DNA of 64,000 nucleotides, taken from the NCBI GenBank assembly GCA_965250285.1, contig OZ252299.1, positions 3,264,001 through 3,328,000 of the forward strand, given 5' to 3'. Every line of letters begins with the position of its first letter. The first letter of the stretch is position 1. This DNA comes from Myxococcota bacterium. Its GTDB lineage: Bacteria > Myxococcota_A > UBA9160 > UBA4427. Of this stretch, positions 2,963 through 41,044 are shown one piece after another. The notes beneath the pieces are model-generated. The model made no database searches and was not told the DNA's origin. It worked only from the letters and a program-made list of their open reading frames with translations. The translations under genes were made by a program, and so were the position numbers.

Positions 2963-2964
2963 GT

Positions 2965-3021
2965 TCGCAAGAACGGCGGGACGGGCGGGGTGCCCGGGTC
3001 GGGGGGTGATCGTTCTTGCGA
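2965..3021 (+). terminator. Inverted repeat just downstream of the MATE gene (possible terminator or stabilising hairpin)
   Basis: TCGCAAGAACG (2965-2975) and CGTTCTTGCGA (3011-3021) form a perfect 11-bp IR with a long G-rich loop and no U-tract. Confidence 0.35.
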
Positions 3022-3232
3022 GGGGGGGCGATTGGGTCGGGGGTGTTCGAGCGGGCCCGCGCTGTACAGAAAGCGAGGCGCTCGAGCGATCTCACACGAT
3101 CGATCCCGTTGCCAACCTCTCGACCGACCCAACGCCGCGGCGAAGCCGCGCGCAGACCCGCGCACGCCCCTTCACCCAAGCATCCGCTGCACCCAATCGG
3201 CTCGAACACAACGGCCTCGCAAGACGGACCGA

Positions 3233-3418
3233 GTCAGGGGCACGTGTTCCAGCGGAGCGACCGCCGCCCCTGCCCCGCAAGCCCGTCGCCCACGGCGCCC
3301 CGCCACAGCGGGCGGCGCAAGATCGCTCGAAGCTGAAGCGACCGGGGACATGCACGCGCCGCCACCGGAACGCCAAGCAGGACCGGAGGGAGTCGCAGTC
3401 GGAACACGTGCCCCTGAC
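3233..3418. repeat. 186-nt structured intergenic repeat, copy 1
   Basis: Perfect 18-bp terminal IR (GTCAGGGGCACGTGTTCC / GGAACACGTGCCCCTGAC). Internal blocks shared with 6406-6591 and 8470-8610. Confidence 0.9.
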
Positions 3419-3462
3419 CTGGCACCCAACCCACCCGACCAAGATCGAAACGACCCGAGGGT

Positions 3463-5474: not shown

Positions 5475-6056
5475 TTAGAACTCCGACTGACCGAAGTTGG
5501 CGGCGCAGGGACCCACGGTCTTCAGCAGGTTGTTACCGAGGTTCGCGGGATCCGAGTTCCACGTACCGGTCGCGGGGCAACCCTGGGTGCCGGCGATGGT
5601 CGGGCCGGGGACACCACCGACGGGCGGCTGGTTGGCGACGTAGCCCCAGACCTGCGGCGTACCGTTGGCGTCGATGTCGGCCACGGCGTCGGCGGTGAAG
5701 CCCGTGAAGGCCGGCGTCACGGCGACGGAGTAGGTGAAGAAGACGTCACCCTCGGGCGACCAGCCGATCACGTCGAAGTCCGTGCCCGGACCACCGGCGT
5801 TCACGAAGGCAACCTTCTGGTTCTGGTTACCGACGGGCGGCGAGATGTTCGCCGGCACGTACGAACCGTACTCAGCGAGGTAGCTCTCCTCAGCCGTGCG
5901 GATGGCGGCGATGTTGACCTTGCCTTCCGAGGTCTTCGACTTCAGCTGGAAGCGAAGGAAGTTCGGGATGGCGATGGCCGCCAGGATGCCGATGATCGCG
6001 ACCACGATCATCAGCTCGATCAGGGTGAAACCCTTCGTGCTCTTGTTGCGCATCAT
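5475..6056 (-). CDS. pilA: Type IVa major pilin
   Basis: Class III signal KG|FTLIELMIVVAIIGILAAIAIPNF with E5, followed by LRFQLKSKTSE as in myxobacterial/Geobacter-type pilins. C-terminal Cys pair. Confidence 0.93.
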   Translation of the reverse strand: MMRNKSTKGFTLIELMIVVAIIGILAAIAIPNFLRFQLKSKTSEGKVNIAAIRTAEESYLAEYGSYVPANISPPVGNQNQKVAFVNAGGPGTDFDVIGWSPEGDVFFTYSVAVTPAFTGFTADAVADIDANGTPQVWGYVANQPPVGGVPGPTIAGTQGCPATGTWNSDPANLGNNLLKTVGPCAANFGQSEF

Positions 6057-6128
6057 AGTTTCGGTTCTCCAGATGGTGGGGAGTGCGACCACGCCCCGAC
6101 TCGAATGACTCAACTGGGTGGTTCCTAG

Positions 6129-6145
6129 AGCAACCCTGATGCCAA
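6129..6145 (-). promoter_or_regulatory. Sigma54 (-24/-12) promoter of pilA
   Basis: Minus strand TTGGCATCAGGGTTGCT has GG-N10-GC and matches TGGCAC-N5-TTGCW, about 73 nt upstream of the pilA start. Confidence 0.85.
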
Positions 6146-6264
6146 ATGGCAACGCGCCATCTCCAGGAGGTGCAACTCCTTCGTCAACCCGAGTCTCTGT
6201 CCGAAGAACTTTTTTCGAATCGAGCACCTGCGCCGATTCAGAGGTCCGAAACCGACGCTCGAAA

Positions 6265-6281
6265 GTGACGGATCCCGACAC
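6265..6281. promoter_or_regulatory. Candidate enhancer (EBP/PilR-type upstream activating sequence)
   Basis: Near-palindrome GTGACGG-ATC-CCGACAC about 120 bp upstream of the -24 element, with an A/T tract (6204-6216) in between. Confidence 0.35.
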
Positions 6282-6405: not shown

Positions 6406-6591
6406 GGGCCGGGGTCGTGTTCCAGCGGAGCGACCGCCGCCCTGGCCACGGCCTCCACGCCTCCACCGCCAGCCGTCACGGCGGGCGGCGCAAGCCCGCC
6501 CATACCCAAAACGACCGGGGACGAGCACGCGCCGCCAGCGCAACGCCAAGCAAGCCAGGAGGGAGTCGAAGTCGGAACACGACCCCGGCCC
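6406..6591. repeat. 186-nt structured intergenic repeat, copy 2
   Basis: Perfect 18-bp terminal IR (GGGCCGGGGTCGTGTTCC / GGAACACGACCCCGGCCC). Aligns without gaps to copy 1. Confidence 0.9.
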
Positions 6592-6625: not shown

Positions 6626-7084
6626 CTAGTCGAAATCGAGATCGTCGAAGATCCCGCCGAGCCCTTCGTCGTCGTCCCCGAACTCTTCTTCGAAGCCATG
6701 CGCCCCGAGGTCGTCGTCTTCGAACTCATCGTCGAAGTCGTCCTCGCTCGCGACTTCGGCGCGGCGACCGTATTCGGGCGGCTCGGGATGGTCGAGCTCG
6801 CCGGCCTCGATCGACGCGCCCACGTCGTCGGGCAGCGCTTCGGCGAGGCGCTCCTGCTGCGCCTCCCACGCGACGCTGAGGGCGCCCTCTTCGGTGTTGC
6901 CGATGAACTCCGACACGGCGTCGACGTCGGGGAAGTGGCCGGGATCTTGAAAGAACCGGATCAGCTCACCGAAGGCCTTGTACGCGAAGAGCAGATCGCG
7001 CACCGGCACTTCGACGACGCGATCCTCGTCGATGTCGTCGATGCCGTACTCGACGACCTCCTGCACGGTCGTGTAGCGGGCCAT
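6626..7084 (-). CDS. Hypothetical acidic protein with D/E-rich tail
   Basis: 152-aa ORF (MARYTTVQEVVEYG...) with normal high-GC codon usage and no recognised family. Confidence 0.75.
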   Translation of the reverse strand: MARYTTVQEVVEYGIDDIDEDRVVEVPVRDLLFAYKAFGELIRFFQDPGHFPDVDAVSEFIGNTEEGALSVAWEAQQERLAEALPDDVGASIEAGELDHPEPPEYGRRAEVASEDDFDDEFEDDDLGAHGFEEEFGDDDEGLGGIFDDLDFD

Positions 7085-7248
7085 GGCTTGACTCCGGGAA
7101 CCCGAGCACGCGGCTCTTCGATGCGGACGCCCGCGAAGTGTGCGCGGCCGACCCACACGATTCAAGAGGAAACGCGACGTCGGTGCACACCGTCCGTGTC
7201 ATGCACGGACCGTTCCAACTCGCGGGCGGCTTGAAACTGAGGCGTGCG

Positions 7249-8469: not shown

Positions 8470-8610
8470 GGGCCGGGGGTGGGGATTCCGACTGCGACTC
8501 CCTCGGGTCTTGCTGTTCGTCGGCGTGGCGGCGCGTGCTTGGCCCCGGTCGCTTCTCTTTCAGGCGGGCGGGCGCCGCCCGCCGTGACGGGGCGCGGTGG
8601 GGGCTCTGGA
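8470..8610. repeat. Structured intergenic repeat, copy 3 (inverted relative to copies 1-2, one arm missing)
   Basis: Reverse complement contains CCGTCACGGCGGGCGGCG...GCGACCGGGG..GCACGCGCCGCCA...GAGGGAGTCGCAGTCGGAA with the same spacing as copies 1-2. Confidence 0.85.
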
Positions 8611-40414: not shown

Positions 40415-41044
40415 GTGATCAGCCAGACCCGAACGAGCGGTTCCAGTGGTTCGAGTGGTTCCAATGGTTCAAGCGGTTCCGATGGTTCGAGTGGTTTCAA
40501 TGGTTCAAGCGGTTCCAGTGGTTCGAATGGTTCCAGTGGTTCCAGAGACGTGCGCAGTGCACGCAGCGATCGGGACGAGAACGGAGACGGAGAACGGGAC
40601 GACGCCCGCATCGATCGCGCCAACCGGCGTTTCCGGCGCGATCGAGGCAGACACGCGAGCGGCCCACGGCGACGTCGCGCGCCTCTCGCGCGTCGAGGCG
40701 CGGCCCTACGCGTCCGCATGGCGCCGGTCGACGCGTCCCGCGCTCGGCCCGCCGCCGGCGGCGCCCCTGCATCGGCCATCGCACGACCCTCAGCGCCCCG
40801 CGGCGGCGTGAGTGAAGGCCTGGCCGTGATGCTCTCGGTCGTCGTCTTCGGGCTCGGGGCCGCCGCCGTCGTTGCGCAGAGCGAGCTGCAAGCACGCGAT
40901 CCCGGCCTCGACATCGCGCTGCTTCGAGCGCACGCATCTCGCCCGCCTGCCTCGGTCACCCCCGACGGCACTCGCCACGTCCACACCTCCAGCTCGCCGG
41001 CGGCGCCCCCCACGTGGTCGCCGGCGGGGGACGTGGCGAGGTAG
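40415..41044 (+). CDS. Hypothetical protein with a GSS/GSN repeat and one TM segment
   Basis: GTG at 40415 after GGAGAGGGAG and a hydrophobic segment LAVMLSVVVFGLGAAAVVA; otherwise low complexity. Confidence 0.4.
   Translation: MISQTRTSGSSGSSGSNGSSGSDGSSGFNGSSGSSGSNGSSGSRDVRSARSDRDENGDGERDDARIDRANRRFRRDRGRHASGPRRRRAPLARRGAALRVRMAPVDASRARPAAGGAPASAIARPSAPRGGVSEGLAVMLSVVVFGLGAAAVVAQSELQARDPGLDIALLRAHASRPPASVTPDGTRHVHTSSSPAAPPTWSPAGDVAR
40439..40546. repeat. 12 x 9-bp tandem repeat (GGTTCNNNN) with a 36-bp higher-order period
   Basis: GGTTCCAGT GGTTCGAGT GGTTCCAAT GGTTCAAGC GGTTCCGAT GGTTCGAGT GGTTTCAAT GGTTCAAGC GGTTCCAGT GGTTCGAAT GGTTCCAGT GGTTCCAGA. Confidence 0.92.

Follow-up and report, generated by a model that had tools for sequence, protein, structure and literature searches.

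The window analysed here, a stretch of 64,000 nucleotides (G000:C1:3264001-3328000), belongs to the 95%-complete genome of a Myxococcota bacterium (G000), assembled as a single contig of 6.25 Mb with 68.6% GC. Close to its start lie three copies of a repeat that we designate element A (Table 1). The first of them, located between the converging MatE and SPFH genes, consists of a perfect 18-bp terminal inverted repeat enclosing a core of 150 bases, exactly as the original prediction had described it, and folds with z values of −4.0 on the plus strand and −4.1 on the minus strand, none of 200 shuffled sequences folding as well. An ungapped alignment of copy 2 with copy 1 gives 75% identity, while copy 3 is devoid of the left conserved block and of the closing stem. 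The conserved blocks named in the original prediction are present in the copies, and so are the two flanking 6-mers it had pointed out, GACCGA before copies 1 and 2 and GCACCC after all three. Profile searches of the whole genome returned exactly four copies, the fourth lying outside the window and the next match having an E value of 0.5. All four are intergenic, and the long blocks of the element are confined to them throughout the 6.25-Mb genome, with the exception of one stray 13-mer.

Other repeats occur in the same surroundings. A second, unrelated palindromic stretch (2963..3232) abuts copy 1 on its 5' side and fills, together with it, the convergent gap between the MatE and SPFH genes; this stretch is single-copy in G000 and gave one weak match of 39 bases in G022, a genome from the same taxonomic family. 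Further downstream, an array of about 14 tandem units of 9 bases occupies positions 40418-40554 of the window. Elsewhere in the chromosome, a third dispersed family of about 110 bases was detected in 19 regions (G000:C1:616386-616497 and 18 more).

Table 1. Element A, its parts and examples of hairpin B in G000. Positions are those of the window unless a genome coordinate is given.
Feature	Position	Strand	Remarks
Element A, copy 1	3233..3418	+	Full, 186 nt
P1 left arm (terminal stem)	3233..3250	+	Perfect complement of 3401-3418; covariation across copies and genera
Left conserved block	3251..3269	+	G-N-A triplet between C and G at 3253-3257; N free across genera
Variable interior, length conserved	3270..3385	+	No excess folding or coding signal
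Inner conserved block, likely P2 5' side	3311..3318	+	Complementary to 3356-3363
Inner conserved block, likely P2 3' side	3356..3363	+	Complementary to 3311-3318
Right conserved block, purine-rich	3386..3400	+	Second G-N-A triplet at 3394-3398
P1 right arm (terminal stem)	3401..3418	+	Perfect complement of 3233-3250
Unpaired 3' tail	3419..3427	+	Gives element A its polarity; similar tail after sister hairpin B (by-eye comparison)
Element A, copy 2	6406..6591	+	Full; flanked by a pilin-type gene (5475-6281, −) and an ORF (6626-7165, −)
Element A, copy 3	about 8471..8601	−	Lacks its 5' third; directly follows the stop of an SLT (lytic transglycosylase) gene
Element A, copy 4	G000:C1:3457150-3457334	−	Full, outside the window; from the profile search of the genome
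Hairpin B examples	G000:C1 2793-2930, 7145-7416, 5764142-5764680		IS5-type MITEs

Distribution, genomic context and turnover

A covariance model built from five copies detected element A in four of the 68 genomes of the taxonomic family, namely G000, G001 from the same genus, G005 and G022, so that the carriers span three genera and the copy number ranges from 0 to more than 50 within a single family. G001 harbours three copies and G022 two. The extreme case is G005, with 54 matches to a two-block pattern and 51 full plus 7 right-arm-only copies recovered from the fetched loci, a more than tenfold expansion relative to G000 (at least 51 full copies versus 4). When a second model was run over 151 genomes of the order, four had matches, the fourth being a weak and shorter hairpin in G105; this 110-base hairpin (L096:1501-1610) shows a stem base and left block like those of element A around a short interior. 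Across 151 genomes of the phylum only G000 matched, leaving 150 others without the element. These covariance-model searches scored 16-37 candidates per genome, so rare divergent copies can be missed, and one diverged copy of G001, in the gap orthologous to that of copy 2, did escape them at first.

A loose pattern matched in 26 of 225 genomes of the class; of these matches, 24 loci from non-carrier genomes were fetched, and at E 0.001 the model accepted none of them. Exact patterns, built from the G000/G001 version and therefore expected to miss the G005 and G022 versions, gave no locus for element A or for the sister hairpin B described below in IMG/VR, one chance match in the JGI metagenomes and five loci in GTDB, of which one was genuine (L011, on the same contig as in G001) and four were chance; no true copy outside the genus came from these scans. 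BLAST against plasmids and phages returned short chance matches only. At the gathering cut-off Rfam 15 had no match in the window, and at E up to 1 it gave a single unrelated weak match among the element sequences of 10 loci. A search of the openly accessible literature listed no description of the family. Element A is a real but narrowly distributed repeat, and the observation behind the original prediction is confirmed.

The presence of the element varies between orthologous sites. In G001, the gap corresponding to that of copy 1 contains two copies, one of them nested in another inverted repeat of about 40 bases, the gap of copy 2 holds the diverged copy mentioned above, and the gap of copy 3 is free of the element; the gap of copy 4 carries a B-like hairpin in G001 and is empty in G022. 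Copies share 71-75% identity within G000, 81% in the G001 pair and 74% in G022, compared with 66% and 58% for copies occupying the same gap in different genomes. Copies thus resemble each other more closely inside one genome than across orthologous gaps, which points to turnover or homogenisation at favoured sites. Same-strain assemblies, available as contigs, which drop rare variants, displayed no variant inside copies and no excision or polymorphism.

The expanded set of G005 allowed the genomic context to be described in greater depth. According to codon-model gene calls, 37 of the 46 scorable copies are located between convergent genes, 7 between co-directional genes (both kinds) and 2 between divergent ones. 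Element A lies there nearly always inside a fixed unit of 280 bases composed of a small hairpin, the element, its tail and a leader, and about 33 of the 51 full copies, counted by eye, have hairpin B directly upstream and the leader repeated in inverted orientation at the far end. Partial units also appear in tandem, as in BIME-type mosaics. Comparison of three G005 loci (L026, L034 and L042) with a fourth (L040) disclosed a third module, C, upstream of element A. In L026 and L034 a multi-copy sequence that runs into the contig end abuts module C, the same place being uninterrupted in L040; this sequence has the look of an IS110-type end targeting the mosaic.

Terminal stem, interior and folding strand

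The terminal stem P1 is the part of the element for which pairing is best documented. In a set of 15 copies from the four genomes, 94% of cells were paired and 11 of 22 pairs showed double changes, a level reached by none of 500 shuffles, whereas slid controls gave 36-50%; within G005 alone, four pairs had double changes. The stem measures 18-19 bp and encloses an interior of about 130 bases, and among the strongest column pairs by mutual information the only Watson-Crick pair falls in P1. Covariation is thus seen in the terminal stem and is almost nil in the interior.

Conservation is distributed in a similar manner. Among the 51 full copies of G005, arms and subterminal blocks are 97% identical, a value overstated because copies were collected through their conserved ends, and identity drops to 70%, 80% and 55% in the three segments of the interior. 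Every one of these copies is different from the others, and transversions (604) exceed transitions (485). Length, on the other hand, is nearly fixed: the distance from block to block is 128-131 bases in 51 of 51 copies of G005, and whole elements measure 184-188 nt in the four genomes and three genera in spite of only 55-68% identity between genomes.

The interior itself folds no better than shuffled sequence. For 26 of the 51 G005 copies, mean z values as RNA were 0.03 and −0.16 on the two strands, the interior of copy 1 gave +0.9 and +1.1, and values stayed near zero as RNA and as DNA on either strand, copy 2 on the minus strand (z −2.5) being the sole exception among 33 copies or copy sets. 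One inner helix, P2, of 7-8 bp, is nevertheless plausible: it is paired in 96% of the 51 G005 copies, with no double change there, and compensatory changes were seen by eye in copy 4 and between genera. The original prediction had paired the left block with the middle block, an arrangement that copies 1 and 2 would allow but that neither copy 4 nor the relatives preserve; comparison of the copies by eye makes it more likely that the middle block pairs with the block at 3356-3363. A coding function finds no support either, as ratios of non-synonymous to synonymous changes ranged from 0.7 to 1.26 over the six frames, length variants cover 128-131 bases, tblastx yielded low-complexity matches only and NCBIfam had no match. 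Linkage among 42 dimorphic sites fell from a mean r2 of 0.28 at 1-5 nt to 0.04 beyond 70 nt (0 of 2000 permutations). Such a decay with distance is the one expected from recombination or gene conversion between copies, although clustered multi-base changes could contribute, and the interior looks as if it has been shuffled by recombination between copies.

Read on the plus strand, both conserved blocks contain a G-N-A triplet between C and G, of which only the central base differs from genus to genus. G-N-A triplets are able to face each other in a 'zipper' form. In our reading of the alignment, the two facing triplets would extend the stem through a 3x3 loop, beyond which a 6-bp stem in the same register in G022 and tandem G.A pairs in the other carriers could follow. 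According to PMC13037366, such triplets give rise to DNA mini-hairpins of very high stability that contain a sheared G.A pair, the RNA forms being less stable. Each G005 unit contains on average 6.7 G-N-A motifs on the plus strand and 1.1 on the minus strand against a genome expectation of 1.5, a count inflated by the A-rich composition of the plus strand. Wobble pairs lean the same way, with 7 G.U cells at variable stem positions of the four-genome set and, in G005, 4 G.T against 2 A.C. The triplets together with this wobble lean suggest that the plus, A/C-rich strand is likelier to be the folding strand, the wobble part of the evidence being thin. The original prediction had favoured the G/T-rich strand, which does reach a lower folding energy; this advantage is compositional, given that interior z values are about zero on both strands, and the preference for that strand is not upheld.

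A probable hairpin element moved in trans and the alternatives

REPINs, as portrayed in PMC3116915, keep their ends conserved, whereas the spacer between them varies more and counts through its length. Element A displays the same pattern, conserved ends around a free spacer of fixed length, which leads us to read it as REPIN-like. The original prediction of a REP/REPIN-like element is supported by a dispersed and intergenic location, a strong bias to convergent gaps, paired conserved ends, a variable spacer of conserved length and mosaic clusters. We consider, with a probability of roughly 0.6, that element A belongs to the REPIN-like DNA hairpins, is non-autonomous and moved in trans, and stands out by a fixed-length spacer of unusual size. 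In such a scheme, the plus strand, when single-stranded, would fold its ends into P1, topped by an irregular purine-rich section in which two facing G-N-A triplets and then tandem G.A pairs would account for most of the invariant columns. An HUH enzyme of RAYT-like type, or one of the hairpin-nuclease type, would recognise the base of the stem and its G.A-rich head together with the unpaired 3' tail, cut out the unit and re-insert it. The interior would act as a spacer of which only the length counts, and copies, homogenised and shuffled by gene conversion, would survive mainly at harmless sites behind stop codons, where they might perhaps double as 3'-UTR hairpins.

The search for a mobilising enzyme covered the main candidate families. 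No RAYT or Y1 transposase and no reverse transcriptase, which are among the partners that the original prediction proposed to look for, was found in the four carriers: Y1_Tnp matched in 0 of 4, RVT_1 in 0 of 4 with a control that matched in 3 of 14 known genomes, and REP_Tyr_transpos (RAYT-like) in 16 of the 68 family genomes, none of them a carrier, with no element A in 20 fetched loci. In G079 (30 matches) and G007 (13), a RAYT-like gene of some 230 codons is present in numerous diverged copies that score below the family cut-off. Among the carriers, IS110 occurs only in G005, as one transposase, and in G022, and IS91 only in G005, whose IS91 elements are not linked to element A and were discarded as mobiliser. 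DUF559 gave one weak match in G022 and none in the other carriers. GIY-YIG domains in the carriers belong to two long proteins and a small one; three of the seven matched loci were viewed, with no flanking repeat, and the other four have open frames of 693-1312 codons. Moreover, the element A model found no match in 25 RAYT-like, IS110, IS91 and DUF559 loci, nor did the element A profile in the 51 loci of transposases or nucleases that were fetched. G000 is a single contig, but the assemblies of the other three carriers are fragmented and may lack a gene. The mobiliser has probably been lost from these genomes or diverged too far to be detected in them.

The main alternative, though an unlikely one, is that element A is the relic of an IS end, a hairpin originally placed between a transposase stop codon and the right inverted repeat that spread as a MITE and later lost its outer ends. 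Precisely such a history is seen for hairpin B, which in G000 has 35 copies, arranged in tandem arrays of up to four units, most of them inside IS5-type ends (MITEs), with two retaining the C-terminus of the IS5 transposase; furthermore, intact IS5 elements of G082 (L179) and G078 (L181) carry it between the stop codon and the right end. By eye, the two hairpins A and B resemble each other in the base of the stem and in the 3' tail, and at the copy-4 gap one takes the place of the other. However, element A was found neither in the 51 transposase and nuclease loci examined above nor beside the IS110, IS91 and RAYT-like ones, and its copies show, by eye, neither flanking IS5 inverted repeats nor a target duplication, whereas IS5 ends are seen for B. 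Hairpin B itself, with 47 matches in G005, occurs outside IS5 ends in G001, G005 and G153, is not carried by four sister IS5 elements (L176-L178 and L180) and has a B-like counterpart in an element of a different IS5 subgroup in G170 (L183), which together make it look like a passenger entering IS ends. Two inverted copies of B were also observed flanking a 230-base spacer in G001 (L116:253-760, on G001:C336), an arrangement that looks like a decayed REPtron or MITE; the spacer contains an HUH-looking triplet, but no family match or convincing homologue was found for it.

It is distinctly unlikely that element A is a structured RNA selected by the host, such as a 3'-UTR stabiliser, a terminator or a small RNA, that became multiplied and whose stem and G.A-rich loop serve as a protein-binding site. 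The covarying stem would fit this explanation, as would the location of copies behind stop codons and the two positions that G000 and G001 have in common. RNA, too, can form facing G-N-A triplets and tandem G.A pairs. REPs have, in addition, been proposed to act as RNA (PMC3733652). Against it stand the unstructured interior, the failure to match Rfam, the spread in copy number within one family and, in copies 1 and 2, the lack of matches to a sigma-70-type promoter or to a terminator. Nor is orientation fixed with respect to transcription, since copies 2 and 3 lie opposite to the transcription crossing them and the G005 copies occupy all the contexts enumerated above. The multi-copy structured RNA of the original prediction is accordingly weakened, with covariation restricted to the terminal stem and an interior that folds like its shuffles.

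Variable segments of fixed length between invariant blocks, together with the IS110 transposase of G005, could also recall guides, either bridge-RNA-like or spacer-like, directing insertion or recording target DNA. This is very improbable. The segments are point variants of one consensus, G000 and G001 lack IS110, the IS110 locus of G005 lacks element A, and in 46 copies the segments matched their own flanks no better than those of other copies (7.9 and 8.0, 8.0 and 7.9, and 6.9 and 6.9 bases, own versus other), a flank test that largely refutes the guide reading. As for a retron-like msr/msd or an msDNA-derived repeat, also raised by the original prediction on account of the terminal inverted repeat and of an AGC, with its G, shortly after the left arm, its likelihood is negligible in view of the missing reverse transcriptase in all four carriers, the absence of a long msd-like stem inside and the lack of conservation after the arm, where the three bases differ in G022 and in some G005 copies.

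Beyond the REPIN-like reading of element A taken by itself, a bolder and rather unlikely proposal would treat A and B as interchangeable cargo modules of a new mobile-DNA system of this bacterial order. A single-strand enzyme other than a RAYT, an Ssn nuclease or an IS5 transposase would read the shared stem base and tail, and in A also the sheared G.A head, measure the 130-base spacer by its length and deliver the modules to sites following stop codons and to IS ends. As it stands, element A adds a further, moderately interesting case to the lineage-specific hairpin repeats, the notable aspects being a very long unpaired spacer of fixed length across three genera and the expansion in G005 in the absence of a recognisable RAYT. 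Should the copying enzyme prove new, it would constitute an additional class of hairpin-guided single-strand transposases or nucleases and help to explain REP families that lack a dedicated transposase, of which PMC3733652 gives examples. The copying enzyme and the common base of A and B are the interesting part, and the 51 divergent copies of G005 constitute a ready test set.

Comparison with known systems

Integron attC sites were considered and rejected as relatives of element A. Its core triplets stand in reverse order relative to the attC consensus, and it forms a family separate from the 45 attC-like regions of G000, which are arranged in arrays (G000:C1:109232-111538 and from 5464421 on) that suggest integron cassette arrays. 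The IS5-family MITEs (NF033581) represented by hairpin B share a similar stem base and tail with element A and pair with it in the G005 mosaics. Unlike these, element A is devoid of IS5 inverted repeats and of any transposase remnant, and IS5 ends were not found to contain it. The G005 mosaics are reminiscent of BIMEs in that several hairpin modules follow one another in a set order and orientation in convergent gaps, but their modules are irregular hairpins of 110-190 nt instead of 35-nt REPs.

There is precedent for hairpin repeats that have no transposase of their own (PMC3733652), and some of them are targets of small GIY-YIG Ssn nucleases (PMC11893778). The CGTC-type REPs and Ssn-related motifs are, like element A, polar hairpin repeats behind genes that were long thought to be transposase-less. 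Element A differs from those descriptions in having no CGTC or TGTC tag, in its unit of 186 nt versus 20-50 nt and in lacking the stem of 8-9 bp with a loop of 4-5 bases, and none of the loci viewed showed an Ssn gene flanked by the repeat. In an Edaphobacter contig, a short REP (L012:3001-3040) presents, by eye, the two subterminal motifs of element A around a 3-base loop; our model does not score this locus.

With regard to the REPINs and RAYTs of Pseudomonas fluorescens SBW25 (PMC3116915), the spacer of element A, of about 130-150 nt, is unpaired and does not form a single long hairpin, its arms are not palindromic REPs, no GTAG tag is visible, the unpaired tail is different and the carriers have no RAYT. 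Formally, then, element A is not a REPIN, by reason of its unpaired spacer and the missing REP tag and RAYT, but it would work like one, and it has in common with the SBW25 elements their extragenic and dispersed location, their occurrence in clusters and their inverted conserved ends.
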